Virus record (IMG/VR): IMGVR_UViG_2563366922_000004
Strand: one strand, 5' to 3'
DNA: 33,415 nucleotides
Source: a virus
Lineage: Duplodnaviria > Heunggongvirae > Uroviricota > Caudoviricetes
The notes beneath the pieces were generated by a model. The model saw nothing but the letters and a program-made list of their open reading frames with translations, was not told where the DNA came from and did not search any database. Made by a program: the position numbers and the translations under genes. This document shows, in pieces, positions 4,870-33,415 of this stretch (position 1 is the first letter of the stretch; every line of letters starts with the position of its first letter).

Positions 4870-5145
4870 ATGTCGATGTACACAACCGCCCAACTGCTGG
4901 CGGCAAATGAGCAGAAATTTAAGTTTGATCCGCTGTTTCTGCGTCTCTTTTTCCGTGAGAGCTATCCCTTCACCACGGAGAAAGTCTATCTCTCACAAAT
5001 TCCGGGACTGGTAAACATGGCGCTGTACGTTTCGCCGATTGTTTCCGGTGAGGTTATCCGTTCCCGTGGCGGCTCCACCTCTGAATTTACGCCGGGATAT
5101 GTCAAACCCAAGCACTTAGCATGGCTTTCTGAGGCTTTCGTGTAG
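4870..5145 (+). pseudogene. E: Major capsid protein E, 5' fragment: 82 native codons then 9 insert-derived codons (LAWLSEAFV) and stop
   Basis: MSMYTTAQLLAANEQKFKFDPLFLRLFFRESYPFTTEKVYLSQIPGLVNMALYVSPIVSGEVIRSRGGSTSEFTPGYVKPKH matches lambda E residues 1-82; similarity ends abruptly at 5115/5116. Confidence 0.9.
5107..5115 (+). repeat. Left att core copy CCCAAGCAC (attL side)
   Basis: Matches the right copy CCGAAGCAT at 16152-16160 in 7 of 9 positions; both lie exactly where lambda-E homology ends and resumes. Confidence 0.6.
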
Positions 5146-5227
5146 TTGCTGGTTTTTACACTTAATCTTTTGATAATAAAGAATAAGTTTATCTGGCGCT
5201 TTCACTGAATTTTCCTCGTTATCTGTG

Positions 5228-5263
5228 TGTTGCAATCATCTCTGTATTGCAGCTTGTATTGCT
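5228..5263 (+). promoter_or_regulatory. Cluster of TGT(A/T)TTGCA direct repeats upstream of int; candidate integrase arm-type sites
   Basis: tgttgcaa (5228-5235), tgtattgca (5243-5251), tgtattgct (5255-5263); the same TGTATTGCA motif recurs twice near the other end at 16043-16063. Confidence 0.4.
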
Positions 5264-5277
5264 TTTTGGGGCTAAAA

Positions 5278-6513
5278 ATGGCTGGCGAGAACAAACTGAG
5301 CGACAAAGCGCTTAAAGGATATCTGGGGAAACCCAGAGAAAAGCAGATCACCATTGCTGATGGAAAGGGGCTTTCTATTCGTGTGAGTACTAAAGGGGCT
5401 GTGAGCTTTGTTTTCTTCTACAGGTTAGCAGGTGGCCGGGCTGCTCCGGTCTGGCTAACGTTGGGTAAATATCCTGATATGTCACTCAAACAGGCAAGGG
5501 AAAAGCGCGACGAGTGCCGTGGTTGGTTGGCTGACAAACGTGATCCGCGTATCCAGATTAAGATTCAGGCTGAAGAACGCTTAAAGCCGGTCACAGTGGA
5601 GGATGCACTAAATTACTGGTATGAAAATTACTGTAAGGTGCGTCGTAAAACTCATGCTGTAACGCTTGGCAGATTTCGAAAGCATATCTTTCCCTATATC
5701 GGTCATTTGCCCGTAAATGACACTCACCTATATGAATGGCTGGACTGTTTTGACCGAATTAAACGTAATGCACCAGTTATGGCGGCGTATGTTTTTTCTG
5801 ACACTAAATTAGCTCTTCGTTTTTGTCGGGTACGCCAGTACGCGACGTGTGATGCTTTAAAGGATTTGCGCATGAGTGATGTGGGGCAGATTGCAGGTAA
5901 GCGGGATCGGGTTCTGGATGAAGCCGAACTCGGCCAGCTCTGGAAGGCAATTTTTGTCGAGCCTGATTTAAAACTAATGTCTGAATACACGCGAAAAATG
6001 TTTGTGCTTTGTACAGTATTTGGATGTCGAATGAGTGAAGCCCGATTATCAGAATGGAGCGAATGGGATCTCGAAAGTTGGGTTTGGACTGTACCAAAAG
6101 ATCACTCAAAAACTGGTGTTGAAATCGTCAGACCAGTACCTGAAATTCTACGACAGTGGGTAACGGATGTTCACGAAGAGACAAAACATACTGGTTATGT
6201 GCTGGGAAGTCTGCGAATTAGAGAAAGCGTAAGCAAGATTGGGGGGAAAATCGGTAAACGTTTGGGCCATGAAAAACAATGGTCACTACACGACCTTAGA
6301 AGAACGCTATCTACTCATCTAAGTGATCTCGGTGTTGAATTTTATGTAGTAGAACAACTGTTAGGCCATGCGCTACCTGGCGTGGCAGGTGTTTACAATC
6401 GGAGTAAGTTTATGGCTAAAAAACTGGATGCTCTGGAACTCTGGACTACATATCTCAATAGCATCGCAGGTGCTGATTCAAAAGTGACAATCCTCAAACA
6501 AAAGGCTGGTTAA
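5278..6513 (+). CDS. int: Tyrosine recombinase / integrase (P4-like), probable ATG start at 5278
   Basis: N-terminal arm-binding-like region (GKYPDMSLKQAREKRDE) and C-terminal catalytic motifs (HDLRRT, LLGH, GVYNRS); ORF track opens at GTG 5227 but the homologous N-terminus begins MAGENKLSDKAL. Confidence 0.88.
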   Translation: MAGENKLSDKALKGYLGKPREKQITIADGKGLSIRVSTKGAVSFVFFYRLAGGRAAPVWLTLGKYPDMSLKQAREKRDECRGWLADKRDPRIQIKIQAEERLKPVTVEDALNYWYENYCKVRRKTHAVTLGRFRKHIFPYIGHLPVNDTHLYEWLDCFDRIKRNAPVMAAYVFSDTKLALRFCRVRQYATCDALKDLRMSDVGQIAGKRDRVLDEAELGQLWKAIFVEPDLKLMSEYTRKMFVLCTVFGCRMSEARLSEWSEWDLESWVWTVPKDHSKTGVEIVRPVPEILRQWVTDVHEETKHTGYVLGSLRIRESVSKIGGKIGKRLGHEKQWSLHDLRRTLSTHLSDLGVEFYVVEQLLGHALPGVAGVYNRSKFMAKKLDALELWTTYLNSIAGADSKVTILKQKAG

Positions 6514-6514
6514 C

Positions 6515-6742
6515 ATGAAAAAAATGGCAATTGTTGATAAAAAGGGTCTGGAGTACATTCCTAACATTGATCGTATGATCCGTGAGAAAGAATGTCGGGA
6601 GCTAACCACTCTTGCGAACAGCACACGCTGGAAGCTGGAGAAGGAAGGAAAATTTCCTAAGCGGATCAAGATTGGCGCTACTGCGGTAGCTTACCGTCTC
6701 TCCGAAGTTCAGGCATGGATTAGGGGGGAATGGCGGACATAA
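6515..6742 (+). CDS. alpA: AlpA-family HTH transcriptional regulator / excisionase-like protein (75 aa)
   Basis: Small protein directly after int with an AlpA-like helix-turn-helix region (ATAVAYRLSEVQAWIRGE); typical int-alpA pair of P4-like elements and PICIs. Confidence 0.8.
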   Translation: MKKMAIVDKKGLEYIPNIDRMIREKECRELTTLANSTRWKLEKEGKFPKRIKIGATAVAYRLSEVQAWIRGEWRT

Positions 6743-6778
6743 ATGTTGTAGTAAATTGTTATATAAAAGGGTGTAAGC

Positions 6779-7654
6779 ATGGCTACTCGAAAAAAAAATA
6801 GCGTAGAAATGAAAACTGTTTGTGAACTAATCATATCAAGAGATGATATGAAAGATAAAATTCAAGACAGAATTCAAAAAGGATTATTACTCCTACAGAA
6901 AAGCATAAATAACAATAGTGACTTGGAGCTGTTTAATGCTGATTACAGGAAATGGAGTGATTTTAATGCTGAGCTACTGAAGCGTAGTTTCACAAATGAT
7001 GATTTCAAAGAAGAATATGAAGGTGGGGCATTTGGTGTTATTTCATTGTACGAGACTTCCTTGGGAGAAAAAATCAGTGAGGCTACGCGTAAACTCCAGA
7101 GTAAGATAAGAAAACTAGAGTCGATTATGGAGCGACTGGAGTTAATTCCTATATCTTCCAAAGTTGTTGAAGAAAATATTGAAGTACCTCAGAGTTCAGC
7201 GGTAAAAACCAAAAAGGTATTCATTGTTCATGGAAGAGATGAAATATCAAAAACCAACTTAGAAGTGTTTTTAAGAGAAATTGGCTTAGAACCTATTGTT
7301 CTCCATAGGCAAGCTGATGTAGGTCAGACAGTGATTGAGAAATTTGAAGCAAATAGTGATGTTGGTTTCGCATTCATTCTTCTCACACCTGATGAGATCG
7401 CTTATTTATTGCCGCAAGACTCTTTACCTGATAATGAAAGAGAAAAGGAGTTACGTGCACGACCAAATGTAATGTTTGAATTTGGTTATTTCGTAGGGAA
7501 ATTAGGTCGTTCTAAGGTTTGTTGTCTATACACAGGTGATGTAGTGATTCCAAGTGATTTGAATGGTCTTATTTATAAAAAATTCAATTCTTCTATTGAA
7601 GAAGTAGCATATAGCATTATTAAAGACTTGCGAGCTACTGGTTACGCAGTTTAG
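6779..7654 (+). CDS. Two-domain protein: N-terminal coiled-coil-like region plus C-terminal TIR-like domain; candidate defence effector
   Basis: C-terminal half has the motifs I recall for bacterial TIR-like (COG4271-type) proteins: VFIVHGRD...LLTPDE...RARPNVMFEFGYFVGKLGR; the gene and its flanks are strongly AT-rich compared with neighbours. Confidence 0.55.
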   Translation: MATRKKNSVEMKTVCELIISRDDMKDKIQDRIQKGLLLLQKSINNNSDLELFNADYRKWSDFNAELLKRSFTNDDFKEEYEGGAFGVISLYETSLGEKISEATRKLQSKIRKLESIMERLELIPISSKVVEENIEVPQSSAVKTKKVFIVHGRDEISKTNLEVFLREIGLEPIVLHRQADVGQTVIEKFEANSDVGFAFILLTPDEIAYLLPQDSLPDNEREKELRARPNVMFEFGYFVGKLGRSKVCCLYTGDVVIPSDLNGLIYKKFNSSIEEVAYSIIKDLRATGYAV

Positions 7655-7683
7655 TAAATTCTTTGAACTAAAAATCTGCATAG

Positions 7684-7716
7684 ATATAGAGCCATTCGAG
7701 ATAAATGGCTCTATAT
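7684..7716. terminator. Perfect 13 bp inverted repeat with 7 nt loop between convergent genes; likely bidirectional terminator
   Basis: ATATAGAGCCATT-cgagata-AATGGCTCTATAT read directly; sits between the stop of 6779-7654 (+) and the stop of 7730-7909 (-). Confidence 0.5.
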
Positions 7717-7729
7717 GAAATATTATCTG

Positions 7730-7909
7730 TTAAATTTTGACTTCATATCCGCGTTGCTGTAGTTCTTTGCGAATAATCCTTTTAATCCAGGCTGCTAAAG
7801 ATTCGTCTCCATCTACTTGCTGTGCTTGCTCCATCAACTCCCTCAACTCAGGATCTAACCGAAACTGGAACGGAGGATTACCACGTCTTTGATTTTTGTG
7901 TGTTGACAC
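7730..7909 (-). CDS. Small Arc/MetJ-type ribbon-helix-helix DNA-binding protein (59 aa, GTG start); not in the ORF track
   Basis: Manual minus-strand translation gives (V)STHKNQRRGNPPFQFRLDPELRELMEQAQQVDGDESLAAWIKRIIRKELQQRGYEVKI, with a beta-strand then two helices as in Arc; start codon overlaps palindromes. Confidence 0.5.
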   Translation of the reverse strand: MSTHKNQRRGNPPFQFRLDPELRELMEQAQQVDGDESLAAWIKRIIRKELQQRGYEVKI

Positions 7910-7957
7910 GTCAATTACACCCGATGTAATGTGTTAATGTGTGATGACACATTACAT
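7903..7957. promoter_or_regulatory. Divergent control region: palindrome TTGAC-AC-GTCAA (7903-7914) and 10 bp inverted repeat ATGTAATGTG / CACATTACAT (7924-7933 / 7948-7957); candidate operator and promoter
   Basis: Inverted repeats read directly; TTGACA at 7903-7908 is a plausible -35 for the rightward operon; located between the RHH gene (-) and the 8040 operon (+). Confidence 0.35.
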
Positions 7958-8039
7958 ACGTGTTTAGGAAAATGCAACGCCTCGACGTGCGGGAACACCA
8001 TCGAGGCGTCTAACCAACCCGTTAAATGAGGTAACGATT

Positions 8040-8405
8040 ATGGCTGGAACACAGCATACCCAAACTCACCCTAAATTTATATACACCTTTCTGGCACTAC
8101 ACCACGACCGCATGGCAGATGGAGCAACTACGGTACATGTAGCCGCTGACACGCTGGTTGATGCCCGCAAGATGGTTAAGGAGATGGGCTATACTGCGGC
8201 TTTCTGGAAAGGGCGTGAAGAAAACACGCTGTTTATTCAGAAATGCGAAAACAATTTCATCTGGCGTTTTATCGCCCTGAGCACCGCACAACCGCGCGTG
8301 ATTCACATCGTGGCCACCAGCGAACAGGAAGCACGCCAGCAATCCCCGGCTGGCTGCGTGATGGTATTCGCCGCCCGTATTCGTCAGGGGGTATGCCATG
8401 CCTGA
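8040..8405 (+). CDS. Hypothetical protein; C-terminal part resembles Icd-like (cell-division-inhibitor-like) small proteins of P4-like elements
   Basis: C-terminal segment FIWRFIALSTAQPRVIHIVATSEQEARQQ...VFAARIRQG resembles the Icd-like pattern from memory; GAGG Shine-Dalgarno about 9 nt upstream of ATG 8040; first gene of a + operon. Confidence 0.45.
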   Translation: MAGTQHTQTHPKFIYTFLALHHDRMADGATTVHVAADTLVDARKMVKEMGYTAAFWKGREENTLFIQKCENNFIWRFIALSTAQPRVIHIVATSEQEARQQSPAGCVMVFAARIRQGVCHA

Positions 8406-8718
8406 TATGTCAAATTACCAGTACCTGATTAATCCGCATTTTAACTGTGAGCATGATATTGCTAAAAAGGTTTATTCCGCTGCGGATGGGGCTACTGACA
8501 ATATATCAATGGCTGTTGCGTCAATTGGTAGCCTGATGTGGCATGCGTCAGAAAATGAGGACTATGACGAAAAGGCTATGCGCATTGATATGGGTAATAT
8601 CGGTTTGTTACTGGCAATGCTTGGGCAGTTTGATATTTCGTTACGGTGCACCATTGAAAATGCCACAGATGCATTAAATGCCATAAAGAAAGCGAATACT
8701 GATTCAAATCGGGGATAA
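8398..8718 (+). CDS. Hypothetical protein (106 aa)
   Basis: ORF with ATGCCTGA start/stop overlap with the upstream gene (translational coupling); no recognisable family. Confidence 0.45.
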   Translation: MPDMSNYQYLINPHFNCEHDIAKKVYSAADGATDNISMAVASIGSLMWHASENEDYDEKAMRIDMGNIGLLLAMLGQFDISLRCTIENATDALNAIKKANTDSNRG

Positions 8719-8724
8719 ATAATC

Positions 8725-9024
8725 ATGAGAACATATTTATCTGGCTTGACTGCCAGCGGTTATGCACACCCCAAAATTATCCCCGGCGCTATTTATCTGG
8801 ATAAGAACGGTAACAGAGTAACGGTAAAAGAACTGATGTTTGACCGTGTGTATTTTATTCGTGATGGCTATTCATTTCATAGTTCGCTGAACGTGGAGAT
8901 CTTTATTAGCAGATTCAGGCGGGAAATCCCGCTTTCCAGAAATAACCATGTGTCATGTATGGATGTTGATAAAAAACTACAGGAACTGAAAAACATGATT
9001 GCCGCGTGGAGAGAGCAGAAATGA
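8725..9024 (+). CDS. Hypothetical protein (99 aa)
   Basis: ORF in operon context immediately upstream of the primase gene; no recognisable family. Confidence 0.45.
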   Translation: MRTYLSGLTASGYAHPKIIPGAIYLDKNGNRVTVKELMFDRVYFIRDGYSFHSSLNVEIFISRFRREIPLSRNNHVSCMDVDKKLQELKNMIAAWREQK

Positions 9025-10838
9025 AAAAAGCGCCAAATTTAAAACACCAGCCGCGTGACAAAATGACGGAAGTCATCATTTTTGCGGGTAGTGATGCGTG
9101 GGCACATGCGAAACAGTGGCAGGAACAGGACGGGCGACTGGCTGGCGATAACGTGCCACCTGTCTGGCTTGGAGAGCAACAACTTGCCGAACTGGACAAC
9201 CTGCAAATCGTACCGGACGGACGCTATCGCGTGCGTCTCTATCAGGCGGGGTTATTGCGTCCGGGGCTTGTTAATACCATCGGGCAGAAACTGGCAGTGG
9301 CAGGTGTCAGGGATGCTGATTATTACCCTGAAGGAATGCACAGCCAGAAACGGGAGAACTGGCGCGAATATCTGGAACGTGAACGGGCAGAGCAGGCGGA
9401 AAAGAAAAAGGTAGTTGAACTGCCTGTAAAGAAAAAAGAGCGGGTAAAAGACGATAACGCTTCATCACTGGCGCTTAACCAGATGGGAGCAAGTCAACGC
9501 GGCGAAGTTCTCCTGGCACATTATGGCGGTGAACTGGCGATTCATGCTGACTCTGACACTGTTCACCATTACAACGGCGTTGTATGGGAGCCAGTACAGG
9601 ATAAAGAATTACAGCGAGCTATGGCACAGATTTTCATTGATGCGGAGATCAGCTATTCGCAGAACGCCATTAAATCGGCGGTCGATACCATGAAGTTAAG
9701 TTTGCCTGTAATGGGGAATACAGCCCGTAACCTGATTGGATTCAGTAACGGGGTATTTGATACCAGAACAGGTAATTTTCGGGAGCATAACAAAAACGAC
9801 TGGTTGTTAATTGCCAGTGAATTACCTTTCAGCCCACCAGCAGAGGGGGAAACGCTGGCAACACATGCGCCGAATTTCTGGAAGTGGTTACGCCGTTCGG
9901 TGGCTGAGAATGACCGCAAGGCGGATCGCGTACTGGCTGCATTATTCATGGTGCTGGCGAACCGGTACGACTGGCAGTTATTCATTGAGGTAACAGGTCC
10001 AGGGGGAAGTGGTAAAAGCGTGATGGCGGAGATTTGCACCATGCTGGCGGGTAAGGCCAACACAGTATCGGCAAGCATGAAGGCGCTGGAAGATGCAAGG
10101 GAACGCGCGTTAGTGGTTGGCTTTTCGCTGATTATCATGCCGGATATGACCCGCTACGCTGGTGATGGGGCAGGGATTAAGGCTATTACAGGCGGTGACA
10201 AGGTGGCAATTGACCCGAAACACAAAGCCCCCTACTCAACGCGTATTCCGGCAGTAGTGCTGGCGGTTAACAATAACGCCATGTCATTCAGTGACCGCAG
10301 CGGGGGGATCTCACGTCGTCGGGTGATATTCAATTTTTCGGAAGTTGTACCGGAGAACGAACGCGATCCAATGCTGGCGGAAAAAATAGAAGGTGAGTTG
10401 GCGGTAGTGATTCGCCATCTGCTTACACGGTTTGCTGACCAGGACGAAGCCAGACGCCTGTTATATGAGCAGCAGAAATCTGAAGAAGCACTGGCGATAA
10501 AGCGAGAGGGGGATTCGCTGGTGGACTTCTGCGGCTATCTCATGGCGTCGGTAATGTGTGATGGCCTGTTAGTGGGTAATGCTGAAATTGTGCCATTCAG
10601 CCCACGCAGGTATCTCTATCATGCCTATCTGGCTTATATGAGGGCACATGGGTTTGGTAAACCTGTAACACTGACGCGCTTCGGTAAAGATATGCCGGGG
10701 GCAATGGCGGAATATGGCAGGGAGTATATGAAACGGAAAACGAAGCACGGTTTGCGTTCAAACGTGACACTGACGGAGGAATCAGAAGACTGGATGCCAT
10801 CATGTGTATCGGTCACTAATGACGATAGCAAAAATTAA
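9006..10838 (+). CDS. Replication protein: primase / SF3-type helicase (P4-family), start 9006 or 9021
   Basis: Walker A motif VTGPGGSGKS and Walker B-like SLIIMPD; 610 aa; immediately followed by an iteron array. Confidence 0.82.
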   Translation: MERAEMKKAPNLKHQPRDKMTEVIIFAGSDAWAHAKQWQEQDGRLAGDNVPPVWLGEQQLAELDNLQIVPDGRYRVRLYQAGLLRPGLVNTIGQKLAVAGVRDADYYPEGMHSQKRENWREYLERERAEQAEKKKVVELPVKKKERVKDDNASSLALNQMGASQRGEVLLAHYGGELAIHADSDTVHHYNGVVWEPVQDKELQRAMAQIFIDAEISYSQNAIKSAVDTMKLSLPVMGNTARNLIGFSNGVFDTRTGNFREHNKNDWLLIASELPFSPPAEGETLATHAPNFWKWLRRSVAENDRKADRVLAALFMVLANRYDWQLFIEVTGPGGSGKSVMAEICTMLAGKANTVSASMKALEDARERALVVGFSLIIMPDMTRYAGDGAGIKAITGGDKVAIDPKHKAPYSTRIPAVVLAVNNNAMSFSDRSGGISRRRVIFNFSEVVPENERDPMLAEKIEGELAVVIRHLLTRFADQDEARRLLYEQQKSEEALAIKREGDSLVDFCGYLMASVMCDGLLVGNAEIVPFSPRRYLYHAYLAYMRAHGFGKPVTLTRFGKDMPGAMAEYGREYMKRKTKHGLRSNVTLTEESEDWMPSCVSVTNDDSKN

Positions 10839-10850
10839 ACTTATGGAATA

Positions 10851-11075
10851 ACTGTTCACCACTGTTCACCCTGTCATAAATATCTTTTATATCAGTATAT
10901 TATAGGGTGAACAGTTATTTATGAACTGTTCACCAAACTATTCACTGTTCACCTTTTTGATTGTTTATTGAGCTTCAAGGGTGAACAGTGGTGAACAGTT
11001 GGTGAATAGTTTTTGTGAAACTGTTCACCCCTTAACATTATGAATTAAAAGAGAAAATATCAAAAGGTGAACAGG
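10851..11075. repeat. Iteron-type replication origin: about 10 copies of CTGTTCACC / GGTGAACAG in both orientations with an AT-rich centre
   Basis: Copies read directly at about 10852, 10862, 10906, 10926, 10945, 10979, 10990, 11000 (variant GGTGAATAG), 11021 and 11066; directly downstream of the primase gene. Confidence 0.7.
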
Positions 11076-11125
11076 TGAAGGGTTAAAACGCAAAAATTTT
11101 AATTTACTGCTGTGAGATAAAGCCT

Positions 11126-11371
11126 ATGACAGCGAAGCACACAAAAAAATCACAATCGCACGCCCTTGATTTGACGGAACACTGGTTAAGGGTGTCGATA
11201 AAAATCATTGACCGCAACGCCGGGGAAGGATATGCGAAAGCACATCCCGAACTGATTAGCGCATTCATGACAACGGCAGCTGCAAACTTTGCCACGCTGA
11301 CAGAACGGGAGATTGCCGAAGCGGAACAGGTGACAACCATCAACGTTAAAACCGGAGAGCAGACAGCATGA
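11126..11371 (+). CDS. Hypothetical protein (81 aa)
   Basis: ORF whose stop overlaps the start of the downstream SSB-like gene (ATGA); no recognisable family. Confidence 0.35.
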   Translation: MTAKHTKKSQSHALDLTEHWLRVSIKIIDRNAGEGYAKAHPELISAFMTTAAANFATLTEREIAEAEQVTTINVKTGEQTA

Positions 11372-11790
11372 CAGCACAGATAGCGGCTTACGGACGGCTG
11401 GTGGCTGACCCGCAGTTAAAGACCACCAGCAAGGGTACACAAATGACGATGGCGAGTATGGCGGTCCCCCTTCCGTGCAGCCAGGCAGATGACGGAACGG
11501 CGCCGATGTGGTTATCCGTCCTGGCGTTTGGCAGACAGGCCGACGCACTGGCAAAACACCACAAAGGCGAACTGGTGAGCGTGGCGGGTAACATGCAGGT
11601 AAGCCAGTGGACAGGCCAGAACGGCGAAACGCGGCAGGGCTGGCAGGTTATCGCAGACAGTGTAATCAGTGCCAGAACGGCGCGACCGGGCGGCAAAAAA
11701 GGTCAACAGGGCCAGGCTACTGACGCACTGAACAGGGCAAAACAACAGTCGGGGAATGATGATCCGTACGGCGATAATATACCGTTTTAA
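11368..11790 (+). CDS. ssb: Single-stranded DNA-binding protein (SSB-like, 140 aa)
   Basis: OB-fold-like N-terminal region and acidic C-terminal tail ending DDPYGDNIPF, resembling the E. coli SSB tail DFDDDIPF. Confidence 0.65.
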   Translation: MTAQIAAYGRLVADPQLKTTSKGTQMTMASMAVPLPCSQADDGTAPMWLSVLAFGRQADALAKHHKGELVSVAGNMQVSQWTGQNGETRQGWQVIADSVISARTARPGGKKGQQGQATDALNRAKQQSGNDDPYGDNIPF

Positions 11791-11807
11791 ATTCTGCAAA
11801 TAAAAAA

Positions 11808-11836
11808 ATGCCGGAAGAAAATAGATTTTCCGGCAT
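11808..11836. other. 9 bp stem hairpin (ATGCCGGAA...TTCCGGCAT) preceded by an A7 run; possible terminator after ssb
   Basis: Inverted repeat read directly. Confidence 0.3.
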
Positions 11837-12001
11837 GCTACATAAATCCCGACCAAAGGAAGTAAATACATTAACACGAATTATCAGCACTGAAGTTGTC
11901 ACGGCATATTTTATACAACATTGCACTTGGTTGCATGTATTCGCATAGCAGACATCGGTAATAGAATATATTCACAATTATTTGTAATGAATGTAAAGAG
12001 G

Positions 12002-13048
12002 ATGAGTATGGTTGATTTATATTCGCCTACACAGCTTGTGCAGGTGGCTAATGCTGAAGATGTGCAAAAAAAATTAAATGCGTTGTTTACCAGTTTGTTT
12101 TTCACTCGCTCGGTAATGTTTGAATCGAGAGACATTATTCTTGATACGATCGACGATCCAAATATCCCGATCGCGGCGTTTTGCTCTCCTATGGTGGGCA
12201 GTAAAGTTTCACGAGATGAGGGATACGAATCAAAAACAATTCGCCCTGGCTATATGAAACCGAAAAGCAGCATTGATCCAAATAAGTTAGCTGTGCGCCC
12301 TGCTGGTGTGTCACCTGAGCAATACAATGCTTTTGGGGCGCGTAATATTAAAGTTAAACAGGCGATTGTAAATCAGGCTAAAGCTATTCGTACACGTATT
12401 GAATGGCTTGCTGTTCAGGCAATCACAACGGGGAAAAATATCATTGAGGGCGATGGTATTGAACGTTATGAGCTGGACTGGAATATAAAACCACAAAATA
12501 TCATCACTCAGTCTGGCGGTACTGAGTGGTCAGGTAAGGATAAAGAAACTTTTGATCCAAATGATGATATTGAGAGCTACGCAGAATTTAGTGAGGGCGT
12601 CACTAATATCATCATTATGGGCGGTAATGTATGGAAGAAATACCGTTCATTCAGAGCGATAAAAGAGGCTCTGGATACCCGTCGTGGTTCTAATTCCGAA
12701 CTGGAAACGGCCCTTAAAGACCTTGGTGATTCGGTGAGTTTTAAAGGGTATATGGGCGATGTTGCGATTGTTGTTTACAGCGGGCGTTATACCGACGAGG
12801 ACGGAACTGAAAAACATTTCCTTGATCCTGATTTGATGGTGCTTGGCAATACGGCTCTTCAGGGGATTGTCGCTTATGGCGGTATTCAGGATCCGGAGCT
12901 AATCCGGATGGGGCTGACTAAAGCCGAACTTGCACCGAAAAACTATATTGTGCCTGGTGATCCGGCTATTGAATATGTGCAGACACATTCAGCACCACAG
13001 CCAATACCGGCCCGTATCAATCGTTTTGTTACCGTTCGCATTGGCTAA
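12002..13048 (+). CDS. Insert-encoded major capsid protein, diverged homolog of lambda gpE (about 349 aa)
   Basis: MSMVDLYSPTQLVQVANAEDV... aligns along its length with lambda E (shared motifs ITQSGGTEWS, LDTRRGSNSELETA, GDVAIVVYSG) but is clearly diverged; start chosen by analogy with lambda E (MSM...), ORF track opens at 11921. Confidence 0.85.
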   Translation: MSMVDLYSPTQLVQVANAEDVQKKLNALFTSLFFTRSVMFESRDIILDTIDDPNIPIAAFCSPMVGSKVSRDEGYESKTIRPGYMKPKSSIDPNKLAVRPAGVSPEQYNAFGARNIKVKQAIVNQAKAIRTRIEWLAVQAITTGKNIIEGDGIERYELDWNIKPQNIITQSGGTEWSGKDKETFDPNDDIESYAEFSEGVTNIIIMGGNVWKKYRSFRAIKEALDTRRGSNSELETALKDLGDSVSFKGYMGDVAIVVYSGRYTDEDGTEKHFLDPDLMVLGNTALQGIVAYGGIQDPELIRMGLTKAELAPKNYIVPGDPAIEYVQTHSAPQPIPARINRFVTVRIG

Positions 13049-13058
13049 GGGGGGAGCA

Positions 13059-13400
13059 ATGGCTACTCATTACACTGAACTCATGGCTGGCACTGAAGCA
13101 CTGGTTACTACGCTGGGGATATTTTCAGCTAATAAAGGGGTAATTCCTGCATTTACGCCACTGATGCAGGAAGATACAACAGGTGCACTGGTGGTATGGG
13201 ATGGTACGAGTGCAGGTAAAGCTGTTTATGTTTCCGCTGTACAACTCGATACAGCGAAAAAAACACAGGCTCAGGTCTATAAGACAGGTGTCTTAAATGT
13301 TGATGCTCTTAACTGGCCTGAGTCAGTAAAAGAACTGTCAGTAAAGGTTGCAGCGTTTGTTGGCTCAGGTATTTCTGTTCAGCCGCTGGCTCGTGTGTAA
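13059..13400 (+). CDS. Insert-encoded head decoration protein, diverged homolog of lambda gpD (113 aa)
   Basis: MATHYTELMAGTEALVTT...ALVVWDGTSAGKAV...YKTGVLN parallels lambda D ([13 protein letters not shown]...YKSGTF); start ATG 13059 preceded by GGGGAG. Confidence 0.78.
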   Translation: MATHYTELMAGTEALVTTLGIFSANKGVIPAFTPLMQEDTTGALVVWDGTSAGKAVYVSAVQLDTAKKTQAQVYKTGVLNVDALNWPESVKELSVKVAAFVGSGISVQPLARV

Positions 13401-13411
13401 AGGGGGATACA

Positions 13412-13795
13412 ATGCAGAATCATTACAATGACCTTAAGCCAATTGCCGAAATGATGTATCCGGATCCAGCAGTAGAGGAATTAAAGGCTATTGCTGACAA
13501 AATGCGTTTAAGCGAGCGTCTTGTTGATATGAATCAGGTGATGGAACTTACAACCCTGAGTCGTCGTACACTGCTAAACCTTGAAGCACGTGGAGAGTTC
13601 CCCGAACGCGTGCAGGTTACGGAAGGGCGTAAGGCCTGGTATTTAAGCGAAGTGATCGACTGGATAAACAATATTCCGCGCGCTTCTGAATATTGCCGCG
13701 TACCTGTCCCAAAAAAGCCAGATGCGGCGCTATGCCTCAAGATTGATCGTGTACGCCGCAATGCACGGGATGGTCGCTATAAGCTGATTGGTTGA
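13412..13795 (+). CDS. HTH protein (AlpA/MerR-like winged helix region), immediately upstream of cos; possible packaging accessory or late regulator
   Basis: Central segment MELTTLSRRTLLNLEARGEFPERVQVTEGRKAWYLSEVIDWINN resembles AlpA-type HTH; function not assignable from sequence. Confidence 0.45.
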   Translation: MQNHYNDLKPIAEMMYPDPAVEELKAIADKMRLSERLVDMNQVMELTTLSRRTLLNLEARGEFPERVQVTEGRKAWYLSEVIDWINNIPRASEYCRVPVPKKPDAALCLKIDRVRRNARDGRYKLIG

Positions 13796-13839
13796 TGAAA
13801 TTAGGGCCCGTTCTGGCTGGCGGGTCCTTTCCGGCGATC

Positions 13840-13890
13840 CGGCAGGTTACGGGGCGTCAGGCGCGCGGGTTTTCGCTATTTATGAGCATT
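13840..13890. promoter_or_regulatory. cos site of the insert (cosN-like): GTTACG-GGGCGTCAGGCG-CGCGGGTTTTCGCTATTTATGA
   Basis: Flanking bases match my recollection of lambda cosN (GTTACG / CGCGGGTTTTCGCTATTTATGA) while the 12 nt between them (13852-13863) differs from lambda's GGGCGGCGACCT; lies just upstream of a Nu1-like gene, as in lambda. Confidence 0.6.
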
Positions 13891-14011
13891 TTAAGGGGAC
13901 TGGTGGTGGTTTTGTTGTTCGCTATATCTGTATGAATAATAAGAGAAAAATACAATCAATACACCAACCTGAAACAGTAATTAAGTTGTGGTATCAATGA
14001 AATTACACCTG

Positions 14012-14539
14012 ATGAACAAAAAAAACATGGCAAAAAGTTGCCGTGTAAGCGCCACTGCGTTCGATAAGTGGGGAGTGATTCCCGTCGAGCGTAAGGGCCG
14101 TGAGGCGTTCTATGATGTTGCCAGTGTAATAGATAATCGGGTTAACAATGCAATCAGCCAGATTACAAACGAAACGGGCGATATTGATGACGATGAACTT
14201 TTACGCGTCAGGATCAGATTACTGACAGCACAGGCAGAGGCGCAGGAGCTTAAAAACGAGCGCGAACGCGGCGACGTTATTGATACAGAGTTTTGTATGT
14301 ATGTTCTTTCCAAACTGGCGAGTCAGATTTCATCTATCATGGACAGCCTGCCGCTTACCATGCAAAGGCGCTTCCCACAGATGACTCCGGCTATGCTGGA
14401 TGGACTTAAAAAGGAAGTGGCTAAAGCCTGTAATGCCAGTGCCGGCGTTGCTGACAACCTCCCACAGATACTGGCTGATTATCTGATGGAAAGTACAGGA
14501 AACGTACCGGATAAGTTGCAGCTGAATAAGGATAAGTAA
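14012..14539 (+). CDS. Terminase small subunit, Nu1-like, with divergent N-terminal DNA-binding region (start 14012, or 13997/14027)
   Basis: C-terminal two-thirds parallels lambda Nu1 (RLLTAQAEAQELKN...TEFCMYVLSKLASQISSIMDSLPLTMQRRFP vs lambda RLTRAQADAQELKN...TAFCTFVLSRIAGEIASILDGLPLSVQRRFP); N-terminus differs. Confidence 0.78.
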   Translation: MNKKNMAKSCRVSATAFDKWGVIPVERKGREAFYDVASVIDNRVNNAISQITNETGDIDDDELLRVRIRLLTAQAEAQELKNERERGDVIDTEFCMYVLSKLASQISSIMDSLPLTMQRRFPQMTPAMLDGLKKEVAKACNASAGVADNLPQILADYLMESTGNVPDKLQLNKDK

Positions 14540-14550
14540 CGTAGTACGCT

Positions 14551-14826
14551 ATGACTGAATCCGAACTACTGAAAGTAATCTGCCATGCTGGTGGAGTCAG
14601 CCACCAGCATGACGAACAGACCACGCAGCCGGGCAGTGTCACCGCTGAAAATTACGCTCGTGTGGTTGCTGAGGTTATGTGGCGTGACGGTATAGAACTG
14701 AACGGACAGGATTGCTTAGTCATCCGCACCAAAGTGCTGGCTATACTGGCAGCTAGGCGGAGGCAGGGACAACGCCAGAACGTTGCATCGTACCAGTGGA
14801 AGAAGCCTGACAGACTGCGGCGATAA
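14551..14826 (+). CDS. Hypothetical protein (91 aa)
   Basis: ORF directly downstream of the small terminase gene; no recognisable family. Confidence 0.4.
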   Translation: MTESELLKVICHAGGVSHQHDEQTTQPGSVTAENYARVVAEVMWRDGIELNGQDCLVIRTKVLAILAARRRQGQRQNVASYQWKKPDRLRR

Positions 14827-15122
14827 CTCTTTGATTTTCTCGACGGCCCCAAAATGGGCCTTACCATAGCCAGCTAATAAATGAGCAAGCCTCAAAAGTG
14901 AGGTTTGTGGCCGTTTGGCCTATTCATATGCTAACTCGTTGATATTCCTGACGACGCAAATTTACGCCTTGTGGCTGGTAGTCGAATTGCAAATTTGCAA
15001 CTCAACTATGAAACTACAGGTAGTTTGGGTAGTAAAAGCAACACACTGATTTTGGGGCTTCTTCGCGATACCTAATATTATGGTATCGGTGGAAGAGATA
15101 TCGTTTCTCATAGGTTAGCACC

Positions 15123-15142
15123 GAGGGCGGAGTTCCGCCCTC
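15123..15142. other. Perfect inverted repeat GAGGGCGGA-gt-TCCGCCCTC in the ORF-free spacer downstream of the HEPN gene
   Basis: Read directly; no clear U-run on either strand, so terminator function is uncertain. Confidence 0.3.
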
Positions 15143-15228
15143 ATCGAAAAATTGCTTACGAGTCGTCAAAATAAATTAATCGACTGAGTATAATGATTAA
15201 CTAATTGCTCGTGTTACTTCATTATACG

Positions 15229-15990
15229 TTATTTCCCATCTTTAAGGTTTAACCAAGTGTTAATTAAAAAAAGAGCCATTGAGCCTGATAAATTTACTGC
15301 AAGTTCGGCATGCCTTGGGGATGGCTTAATTGATGAGCTGTTCGTTCCATGTGCATCACCGAGTTTATTACGAAGAGTACCTAACCCATTTACAACTGCA
15401 GAACAACCGCCGAGAATTTGTTTGAAGATATTTTCAGTATGTTGGTCGGCAGATAGGTTAAGTTCTTTTGAAAGAGTTTTATAAAGCTCTGACATTTCAA
15501 TATTTTTATTATTATACTGAATGCCCATATCATCAAGAATGTGTTTGCAAACTGTTTCAAGAAGTGTTCTTGCGGAGGTTATCGCACCATCCGGATCTGT
15601 ATGGCGCCGTTCAAGTGCTTTTATCCAAACGGCGTGGACTCCATCCTCGTTAAACTTTCTTAATACATCAGATATGTCTTCATCCGCTGGAGCTTTATTT
15701 TTCCCTTCTAGATAGTCCAGCATCGGCTGAAATGCCTTATAAATCAAATCTCTCCGGGGGGCATACTTTTCAGTCTTTTTTATAAATCCCCAAAATTCTT
15801 TTAGTGAGCGATTAGTTCTCACAAACTCTGGTAATAGCTGATGTAAAGGAGGATTTTGTAAGAAATATGTTCTTAGAAGCAAATAATCATTATTAGCTTC
15901 ATCCTGGGCTCCTGTAGCTCTTGCAATTAGTATGTTTTGAAGCGCTACTGCGCGCTCTAGGTCATTTTGAAGGGTATCTATAATATTCAT
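15229..15990 (-). CDS. HEPN-domain protein of the Abi_C (abortive infection C-terminal) type, 253 aa
   Basis: Contains R-x6-H motif in LRNKLGDAHG preceded by ...ITSARTLLETVCKHILDDMGIQY...LYKTLSKELNL...ENIFKQILGGCSAVVNGLGT, matching my recollection of Abi_C; only minus-strand gene in the insert besides the RHH; AT-rich. Confidence 0.65.
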   Translation of the reverse strand: MNIIDTLQNDLERAVALQNILIARATGAQDEANNDYLLLRTYFLQNPPLHQLLPEFVRTNRSLKEFWGFIKKTEKYAPRRDLIYKAFQPMLDYLEGKNKAPADEDISDVLRKFNEDGVHAVWIKALERRHTDPDGAITSARTLLETVCKHILDDMGIQYNNKNIEMSELYKTLSKELNLSADQHTENIFKQILGGCSAVVNGLGTLRNKLGDAHGTNSSSIKPSPRHAELAVNLSGSMALFLINTWLNLKDGK

Positions 15991-16042
15991 AACAAATCTT
16001 TATTCACTTCATTTGTGGGTTGATAATTGAATGGTTTGTACA

Positions 16043-16063
16043 TTGATTTCTGTGTATTGCAGT
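16043..16063 (+). promoter_or_regulatory. Two TGTATTGCA direct repeats near the right end; candidate integrase arm-type sites
   Basis: Same 9-mer as at 5243-5263 near the left end; 12 bp spacing. Confidence 0.4.
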
Positions 16064-16151
16064 GTGTATTGCAACATAGCCATTCAGGTAGAGATTATGC
16101 TCTATTTTTCCTCTTATATCATTCACATACTTACACCATTGACTCATGTAG

Positions 16152-16160
16152 CCGAAGCAT
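16152..16160 (+). repeat. Right att core copy CCGAAGCAT (attR side; E codons P-K-H)
   Basis: Direct repeat partner of 5107-5115; immediately followed by E codon 83 (gaa gtg aat = EVN). Confidence 0.6.
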
Positions 16161-16940
16161 GAAGTGAATCCGCAGATGACCCTGCGTCGCCTGCCGGATG
16201 AAGAACCGCAGAATCTGGCGGACCCGGCTTACCGCCGCCGTCGCATCATCATGCAGAACATGCGTGACGAAGAGCTGGCCATTGCTCAGGTCGAAGAGAT
16301 GCAGGCAGTTTCTGCCGTGCTTAAGGGCAAATACACCATGACCGGTGAAGCCTTCGATCCGGTTGAGGTGGATATGGGCCGCAGTGAGGAGAATAACATC
16401 ACGCAGTCCGGCGGCACGGAGTGGAGCAAGCGTGACAAGTCCACGTATGACCCGACCGACGATATCGAAGCCTACGCGCTGAACGCCAGCGGTGTGGTGA
16501 ATATCATCGTGTTCGATCCGAAAGGCTGGGCGCTGTTCCGTTCCTTCAAAGCCGTCAAGGAGAAGCTGGATACCCGTCGTGGCTCTAATTCCGAGCTGGA
16601 GACAGCGGTGAAAGACCTGGGCAAAGCGGTGTCCTATAAGGGGATGTATGGCGATGTGGCCATCGTCGTGTATTCCGGACAGTACGTGGAAAACGGCGTC
16701 AAAAAGAACTTCCTGCCGGACAACACGATGGTGCTGGGGAACACTCAGGCACGCGGTCTGCGCACCTATGGCTGCATTCAGGATGCGGACGCACAGCGCG
16801 AAGGCATTAACGCCTCTGCCCGTTACCCGAAAAACTGGGTGACCACCGGCGATCCGGCGCGTGAGTTCACCATGATTCAGTCAGCACCGCTGATGCTGCT
16901 GGCTGACCCTGATGAGTTCGTGTCCGTACAACTGGCGTAA
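16161..16940 (+). pseudogene. E: Major capsid protein E, 3' fragment (codons 83-341, beginning EVNPQMTLRRLPD...)
   Basis: Translation matches lambda E from residue 83 to the C-terminal ...FVSVQLA; 82 + 259 = 341 codons, the full length of lambda E. Confidence 0.9.
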
Positions 16941-32831: not shown

Positions 32832-33415
32832 TGGCATTCAGAATGAGTGAACAACCACGGACCATAAAAATTTATAATCTGCTGGCCGGAACTAATGAAT
32901 TTATTGGTGAAGGTGACGCATATATTCCGCCTCATACAGGTCTGCCAGCAAACAGCACCTATATTGCACCGCCAGATATTCCTGCTGGCTTTGTGGCTGT
33001 TTTCAACAGTGATGAGGCATCGTGGCATCTCGTTGAAGACCATCGGGGTAAAACGGTTTATGACGTAGCGTCAGGGGGCGAGTTATTTATTTCTGAACTC
33101 GGTCCGTTACCGGAAAATGTTACCTGGTTATCGCCGGAAGGGGAGTTTCAGAAGTGGAACGGCACAGCCTGGGTGAAAGATGCAGAAGCAGAAAAACTGT
33201 TCCGGATCCGAGAGGCGGAAGAAATAAAAAACAGCCTGATGCAGGTAGCCAGTGAGCATATTGCGCCACTTCAGGATGCTGTAGATCTGGAAATCGCAAC
33301 GGAGGAAGAAACCTCATTGCTGGAAGCCTGGAAAAAGTATCGGGTGTTGCTGAACCGTGTTGATACATCAACTGCACCTGATATTGAGTGGCCTACGAAC
33401 CCTGTCAGGGAGTAA
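32831..33415 (+). CDS. tfa: Tail fibre assembly protein Tfa (194 aa); stop codon is the last 3 bases of the window
   Basis: [44 protein letters not shown]... matches lambda Tfa; ATG overlaps the stf stop (ATAATGG). Confidence 0.85.

Follow-up and report, generated by a model that had tools for sequence, protein, structure and literature searches.

What is the role of a helix-turn-helix (HTH) protein whose gene lies between the capsid genes and the cos site of a phage satellite? The question is raised by IMG/VR virus record IMGVR_UViG_2563366922_000004, a stretch of 33,415 nucleotides (referred to in what follows as the window, meaning the whole stretch of DNA that was analysed) that comprises the head-to-tail region of a lambda-like prophage, the helper, whose major capsid gene E is interrupted by an 11-kb phage-inducible chromosomal island (PICI). 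The protein, which we call AlpA127, is a 127-aa second AlpA-family paralog of the island. The answer that we put forward, as a real possibility though short of a probable one, is that AlpA127 serves the capsid module of the satellite as its dedicated transcription factor, binding a set of phased repeats upstream of the satellite capsid gene in a manner that is suggested by analogy with better known proteins of the same fold. The features of this module are the following, in window coordinates.

11808 to 11836, + strand: hairpin ATGCCGGAA..TTCCGGCAT between the gene for the single-stranded DNA-binding protein (SSB) and the repeat array, from reading of the sequence
11911 to 11947, + strand: phased direct-repeat array upstream of the capsid operon, the proposed operator of AlpA127, from alignment of related loci
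11962 to 11967, + strand: candidate -10 hexamer TAGAAT of the capsid-operon promoter, from a consensus match alone
12008 to 13048, + strand: satellite major capsid protein of the lambda gpE family, first gene of the operon (PF03864, E=7.5e-41; tblastn)
13059 to 13400, + strand: satellite head-decoration protein of the gpD family, second gene of the operon (PF02924, E=5.1e-15)
13402 to 13406, + strand: strong Shine-Dalgarno sequence GGGGG, 5 nt ahead of the ATG, read directly from the sequence
13412 to 13795, + strand: AlpA127 (open reading frame, Pfam, PHROG, PDB entry 8c3t, AlphaFold2 model, purifying selection)
13514 to 13681, + strand: region coding for the winged HTH (aa 35-90), nearly invariant among genera in alignments

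Loci encoding AlpA127 were collected from isolate genomes, metagenomes and IMG/VR and reduced to 57 that are non-redundant. In every one that could be read at this position (54/54) AlpA127 comes straight after the satellite capsid and decoration genes, and even the most distant members of the set (47-54% identity) keep both this synteny and the array, while the primase and the downstream gene differ. AlpA127 is the last cistron of the satellite capsid operon, starting 11 nt past the end of the decoration gene and stopping 56 nt upstream of the satellite cosN nick. The short intergenic gaps and the separate ribosome-binding site of each gene indicate that it is co-transcribed with the capsid and decoration genes, the former of which encodes a protein 46% identical to helper E. 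Hairpins stand at both ends of the module; the one at the 3' end of the operon abuts cosQ, and at the position of the upstream one (11808 to 11836) related loci have clear terminators consisting of a GC stem and a T run.

The array in front of this operon consists in the window of the units TTATAC (11911), TTGCAC (11921), TTGCAT (11931) and a degenerate TTCGCA (11941), repeated with an exact 10-bp period. Across loci there are 3-5 TTRYAY units of the same period, and the array is present in all of the 52 loci for which enough upstream sequence is available. Diverged units occur as well: TTATAC in Buttiauxella and, in an element located at the fis site, TTAGAC/TTGTGC where TTGCAC would otherwise be read, this element also having SRQT rather than SRRT in its presumed recognition helix. 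An array of three units is found once per locus, with 0 expected in 300 shuffles, and no further copy was detected elsewhere in the window or in the cos, lysis, Q and early regions of the helper. The promoter that follows has a conserved (extended) -10 element, with TAGAAT homologous to the conserved GTGaTAgCAT of related loci, and no good -35. In the representative loci for which the spacing was counted (window/L151, L003, L006, L015, L137), the last strong unit begins 29-31 nt upstream of the -10; L139 has one extra unit, one turn nearer the -10, and the divergent L002 falls outside this register. The units would thus have their centres near -40, -50, -60 and -70 and face the same side of the helix, a position that is, to judge from the sequence, activator-like in its geometry.

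By domain and fold AlpA127 belongs to the AlpA family, though its size, its extensions, its position and its context make it atypical. The protein scores 34.9 bits against the Pfam family Phage_AlpA, PF05930 (gathering score 21; E=1.4e-8), with residues 36-85 covering positions 2-51 of the 51 in the profile, and it matches PHROG 2790 (E=1.8e-48). Its nearest solved structure is 8c3t, the AlpA-family excisionase of GIsul2 (phmmer E=1.6e-10), and it has the excisionase-like winged-HTH fold of the family. An AlphaFold2 model built from 19 close homologues only was unusable (predicted local distance difference test score, pLDDT, of 49.6), whereas a deeper alignment gave a pLDDT of 82.5 overall and of 91-97 at residues 41-90. 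In this model a helical hairpin is predicted at the N-terminus (aa 5-33; helices 5-15 and 19-33), followed by the winged HTH (aa 35-90) with helices 40-47 and 51-60, a hairpin at 67-77 and a helix at 78-86, and then by a proline-rich linker and an amphipathic/basic helix, 105-120. We take TTLSRRTLLNLE to be the recognition helix, and RVQVTEGRKAWYL forms the wing.

Within the HTH segment non-synonymous changes amount to 0.02-0.07 per site as against 0.5-0.8 for synonymous ones, which are near saturation, and the 127-aa form is kept in at least 12 enterobacterial genera (Escherichia, Enterobacter, Citrobacter, Klebsiella, Salmonella, Pluralibacter, Trabulsiella, Scandinavium, Buttiauxella, Kosakonia, Kluyvera, Superficieibacter, Cedecea). 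Because of this strong purifying selection and wide conservation the reading frame is not a product of chance. The full-length family is narrow: of a library of 1.8 billion, 3 cluster representatives reach E<=1e-30, and past the close relatives all matches are confined to the HTH domain. A tblastn search of 50,697 phage genomes with AlpA127 gave no match, NCBIfam and PADLOC returned nothing for it, and our literature searches turned up no discussion of a second AlpA in the late zone. The usual AlpA has a single domain and only about 60-75 aa, and its gene adjoins that of the integrase; AlpA127 has 127 residues, is extended at both ends and lies 7 kb from int. The initial annotation had described a 127-aa protein with an AlpA-like HTH segment, encoded between the capsid/decoration genes and cos, and both statements hold, the first in view of a PF05930 score above cut-off, the match to 8c3t and the constrained HTH, the second in view of lambda-E-like and gpD-like genes upstream and a cos site downstream. 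What needs correction is the impression that this is the only AlpA of the insert, as a canonical one lies beside the integrase.

6515 to 6742, + strand: canonical AlpA of 75 aa beside the integrase (PF05930, E=6e-15; 39% identity to AlpA127 over the HTH)

Both the identification of AlpA127 as the binder of the array and the direction, positive or negative, of the resulting regulation are inferred. According to this proposal the capsid module would be a self-contained transcription unit made up of hairpin/terminator, array, promoter, capsid gene, decoration gene, AlpA127 and the hairpin at cosQ. Winged-HTH proteins of the fold type of Xis, Cox and BldC bind direct repeats head-to-tail, and the winged HTH of AlpA127 may occupy the phased repeats in the same way, with the N-terminal helical hairpin and the C-terminal basic helix serving for oligomerisation or for contact with RNA polymerase. 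AlpA127 would in this manner control how strongly its own operon is expressed, with positive autoregulation as the likeliest mode, and the first transcripts might be supplied either by read-through of the AlpA-driven early operon or by helper late transcription while the island is embedded. The combination of an SRQT helix with TTAGAC/TTGTGC units in the fis-site element hints at covariation of recognition helix and repeat unit.

Two other proteins were considered as binders of the array. Canonical AlpA is ruled against, since the array is the same, and the HTH of AlpA127 invariant, in loci where the integrase-proximal regulator is not the 75-aa AlpA (AlpA75) but an HTH_17 protein 23% identical to it. 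The arrangement TTGC-N6-TTGC is the box recognized by lambda CII; as a binder in the present case CII is unlikely, there being no annotated CII in the helper and the conserved unit being longer than TTGC, and it might bind such arrays in other helpers.

A number of points weigh against the assignment of the array to AlpA127. The link between the two is drawn from co-occurrence and from analogy, and protein, capsid genes and array always occur together, so that co-occurrence cannot tell binding from mere linkage; the covariation noted above covers one or two lineages only. A PICI type that lacks AlpA127 (EcCICFT073, L141) has TTGCAA/TTGCAT/ATGCAA hexamers before a perfect TATAAT, and these TTGCA-like elements may be -35-like or may be bound by a shared host or helper factor. 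Moreover, TTGCAY arrays with a 10-bp period are common in unrelated phage contigs. A scan of IMG/VR for three consecutive TTGCAY units yielded at least 120 loci, 5 of them of the AlpA127 family, and because most are unrelated, iteron-like repeats the bare motif is not diagnostic. No structural match was obtained for the N- and C-terminal extensions to which oligomerisation or polymerase contact is ascribed. If an activator is encoded in its own target operon, something else must trigger it first, and whether regulation is positive or negative is itself a guess from geometry. The earlier suggestion of a late-gene activator is therefore best described as compatible with what we see, AlpA127 being the last cistron of an operon with a conserved array in an activator-like position, with activation as such an inferred component.

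One might instead suppose that AlpA127 is directed at the helper or the host, acting on their DNA or on one of their proteins, for example by repressing helper capsid genes in the manner of CapR of the PICI-like elements (PLE) or through an inhibition resembling that of TorR by TorI. The linkage to the capsid genes would then stem from the replacement of helper capsid proteins by those of the satellite. We regard this as unlikely. The helper head and tail genes contained in the window have no array-like site, any more than do its cos, lysis, Q and early regions, the late genes are of lambda type without an internal promoter that could be repressed, and there is no evidence for a protein partner.

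The other role suggested in the initial annotation, a packaging-specificity partner of the small terminase (TerS) comparable to the Rpp (redirecting phage packaging) proteins of E. coli PICIs, concerns cos and its surroundings, where the following features are found.

13822 to 13885, no strand: satellite cosQ/cosN region, with flanks nearly identical to those of the lambda cos of the helper
13900 to 13968, no strand: satellite-specific cosB, CTGGTGGTGGT..GTTGTT and CAATACACCAAC, conserved only in loci with a satellite TerS
13997 to 14539, + strand: satellite Nu1-like small terminase (PF07471, E=1.1e-24; BLASTP against helper Nu1)

The sequence at 13822-13851 and at 13864-13885 hardly differs from the cosQ and cosN flanks of the helper, which could be read from the same genome, and the predicted 12-nt overhang between them (13852-13863) is GGGCGTCAGGCG in the satellite and GGGCGGCGACCT in the helper (helper cos, L011 1143-1154). 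Six positions differ, and to judge from these sequences the cohesive ends of satellite and helper would not anneal with each other; further variants, among them GGGCGGAAGGCG and GGGCGGCAGCGT, are found in relatives. Past about position 13886, in cosB, the sequence is unrelated to that of the helper. The cosB motif GGTGGTGGT is followed some 55 bp downstream by ACACC(A/C)AC, roughly its inverted complement, and the pair, conserved only together with a satellite TerS, is likely to constitute the TerS recognition (R-type) sites. The satellite TerS is 36% identical to helper Nu1 over its whole length, C-terminal region included.

Turning to the survey, a satellite TerS is encoded downstream of cos in 30 of the 57 loci, mostly in combination with the cosB CTGGTGGTGGTG...CAATACACCCAC, and at least 10 loci are devoid of TerS and have a cosB that is lambda-like, its GTTTCC elements resembling R3/R2/R1; the type without terS was described by Tommasini et al. 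(PMC10111431). The slot after the decoration gene holds either AlpA127 or a protein like c1501 of the island EcCICFT073, and the slot after cos holds a Nu1-like TerS, RppA, or no such gene along with a lambda-like cosB. Four combinations were observed, including, in L141, a c1501-like 137-aa protein together with a Nu1-like TerS (the loci used for these combinations are L010 7084-8094, L141 10017-11178 and, downstream of AlpA127, L007, L013, L064 and L130). Because TerS is variable under AlpA127, and because L141 joins a c1501-like protein to TerS, the two slots assort independently, the former following the type of capsid gene. A comparison of two E. coli elements (window 13850-14900 and L006 10400-11450) gives 100% identity to the right of cosN and a mosaic of 35-94% to its left, so that a TerS/cosB segment without a single difference is joined at cosN to an AlpA127 variant of 82% identity. 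It follows that recombination has a boundary at cos, with a capsid module on one side and a packaging module on the other. The integrases that accompany AlpA127, which are 24-30% identical to one another and direct insertion at gene E, a tRNA gene or fis, vary in like manner, and the variability of integrases, integrase-proximal regulators and TerS argues both against an obligate partnership with TerS and against a role in excision.

These results make it quite unlikely that AlpA127 is a packaging accessory or interference factor that acts at cos or on terminase, for instance by pairing its winged HTH with the DNA-binding domain of helper Nu1, as Rpp does, or by binding near cosQ, and so biases packaging toward the satellite or blocks that of the helper. 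The gene does adjoin cos. It is, however, retained with two unrelated types of cosB, with or without a satellite TerS, TerS/cosB pairs that are 100% identical coexist with an 82%-identical variant of it, and the slot in which it resides assorts independently of the one after cos. In scans of the cos gap for repeats and terminators nothing was conspicuous and nothing looked like the array units, and the Nu1 profile PF07471 gave no match to AlpA127 at E<=0.1. There is also no similarity in sequence to either RppA or RppC, and the slot of Rpp, downstream of cos, is filled here by a full Nu1-like TerS. The suggested Rpp-like partnership thus finds no support in sequence, architecture, position or co-occurrence.

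It is instructive to examine this last comparison at the level of the loci. In EcCICFT073, which we located in the CFT073 genome, the order is capsid gene c1499, decoration gene c1500, a 137-aa protein, a gap and a 144-aa protein. The 144-aa protein (L010 7660-8094) is RppA, as confirmed by its match to RppC in the PDB (6hlk, E=5e-31), and it sits downstream of cos, in the slot that is held by the Nu1-like TerS in the window. BLASTP of AlpA127 against RppA produced no alignment at E<=100, and a PDB search with AlpA127 at E<=10 did not retrieve RppC (6hlk/6hn7). Homology of AlpA127 to Rpp is therefore rejected, RppA being dissimilar and on the other side of cos. The architectures differ as well: in Rpp, which binds helper TerS and so changes the cosB specificity, the winged HTH is N-terminal (residues 1-64) and is joined to a dimerisation domain, alpha4-alpha6, that contains a long coiled-coil helix, whereas in AlpA127 the winged HTH is central and such a domain is missing; the Rpp gene takes the place of the small terminase downstream of cos, whereas that of AlpA127 lies upstream of it and is accompanied by a complete satellite TerS or by a helper-type cosB. 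The true positional counterpart of AlpA127 in EcCICFT073 is the c1501-type 137-aa protein (WP_000224596), which occupies the same slot and travels with its own type of capsid gene (L010, L141); this protein gives no BLASTP alignment to AlpA127 and has no Pfam or NCBIfam match. As a side observation, capsid operons of the EcCICFT073 type (L141 8165-8338; L010 about 5230-5400) are preceded by two tandem terminators and then by TTGCAT-N16-TATAAT, with TTGCAA and ATGCAA hexamers nearby and a 68-aa open reading frame fused to the start of the capsid gene. This promoter looks constitutive and strong, unlike that of the AlpA127 type.

Closer likenesses are found elsewhere. The canonical PICI AlpA (that of EcCICFT073, PF05930) shares with AlpA127 its Pfam family, its winged-HTH fold and its being encoded by a PICI. 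It is the master activator of Gram-negative PICIs and activates its own promoter (PMC6092414), an autoregulation of the kind that we propose for AlpA127. Canonical AlpA is about 70 aa in length, whereas AlpA127 has in addition the N-terminal helical hairpin and the C-terminal helix, is encoded last in the capsid operon and has a canonical AlpA beside it in the same element. The Pseudomonas antiterminator also called AlpA is a 21Q-like eight-helix protein unrelated to PF05930 (PMC9371919), and we rejected it as a model, the shared name being coincidental. Excisionase-type winged-HTH regulators that act on phased repeats (lambda Xis, P2 Cox, P4 Vis, GIsul2 Xis (8c3t) and RdfS, as well as BldC) provide a second parallel, with the difference that AlpA127 is not tied to a particular integrase or att and that its array is in a promoter and not in an att arm.

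Two further readings can be treated briefly. It would be surprising, though it is conceivable, if AlpA127 were a dual-purpose "capsid-switch" that drives the capsid operon from the TTRYAY operator and at the same time, by means of its C-terminal helix or a Nu1-like surface of its winged HTH, engages helper Nu1 or another protein of head assembly or late regulation; if true, this would couple satellite capsid production and helper interference in one protein, a logic that is undescribed for any PICI, and would give a function to the unexplained capsid genes of these islands. Very improbable, too, is a late-expressed excisionase (recombination directionality factor) that times excision of the satellite from the helper capsid gene, in that the HTH is invariant alongside the divergent integrases and their three kinds of site, elements at tRNA sites keep the TTGCAY array with different arm repeats (GGTATCCTA), an AlpA/HTH_17-type gene or a small open reading frame stands near the integrase in all elements that could be followed as far as the integrase, and the gene is at a distance of 7 kb from int. 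The att arms of the present element (5224-5264 and 16050-16074) contain TGT(A/G)TTGCA repeats with a 12-bp spacing whose core, ATTGCA, resembles an array unit; relatives at the tRNA site are without them, and they correspond to the "doubled motif" of Tommasini et al. (PMC10111431).

The proposal of a regulator dedicated to the capsid module bears on the capsid-protein homologues that are encoded by most Gram-negative PICIs and whose purpose has yet to be explained. When the homologue of EcCICFT073 was deleted, transfer and interference were both unaltered (PMC6092414). For one widespread lineage of PICIs the present survey reveals a fixed three-gene unit, in which the capsid and decoration genes come with their own AlpA-type DNA-binding protein and a repeat-bearing promoter. 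This offers experimenters a concrete way to ask at what time, and to what end, satellites turn on capsid genes of their own. The surroundings of cos consist of two independently exchangeable modules, and an HTH gene beside cos need not be a packaging-specificity factor.

The island as a whole is as follows.

5113 to 16157, + strand: helper-embedded PICI in the helper major capsid gene E, ends approximate, from gene content and the split E

Helper E is broken after ...GYVKPKH at about 5113 and its reading continues at about 16157, with attL at about 5100-5120 and attR at about 16145-16165. The GC content is 0.38-0.51 in the insert and 0.55-0.60 in the surrounding prophage. On the + strand the order is integrase, 75-aa AlpA, TIR protein, Icd-like protein, DUF4222 protein, primase and SSB, and then gpE-like capsid protein, gpD-like decoration protein, AlpA127, cos, Nu1-like TerS and a 91-aa open reading frame, after which an AbiJ-like gene is found on the - strand. 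The core genes of the insert, int-alpA-primase included, are all on the + strand and co-oriented within a late gene of the prophage, in agreement with the helper-embedded PICIs that Tommasini, Mageeney and Williams described in 2023 for the site E:Phage_cap_E:80 (PMC10111431), so that the type of element as a whole is already known. The same split-E layout is annotated in complete E. coli genomes, for example NZ_AP022222.1, and the region is found in 481 of 5426 complete E. coli genomes (∼9%).

Two cargo genes look like anti-phage defence from their sequence matches. The TIR-domain gene (6779-7654, + strand) matches the PADLOC candidate system PDC-S35 (E=7e-67), and the Abi_C/AbiJ-like gene (15229-15990, - strand) has E=2e-21, with a match to PHROG 23253 at E=1e-181. 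An Rfam scan gave no match inside the insert; in the helper part of the window there is a full-length match to Rfam IS009 at 33174-33372 on the + strand (227.8 bits, gathering score 117), near the end of the tail-fibre region. The helper itself is mosaic (L136, NZ_AP022222.1 3556000-3570000), with cos, Nu1 and head genes that are identical to those of lambda and an early region that is DLP12/CPS-53-like, having intD at tRNA-Arg, yfdN-T, ymfL and quuD.
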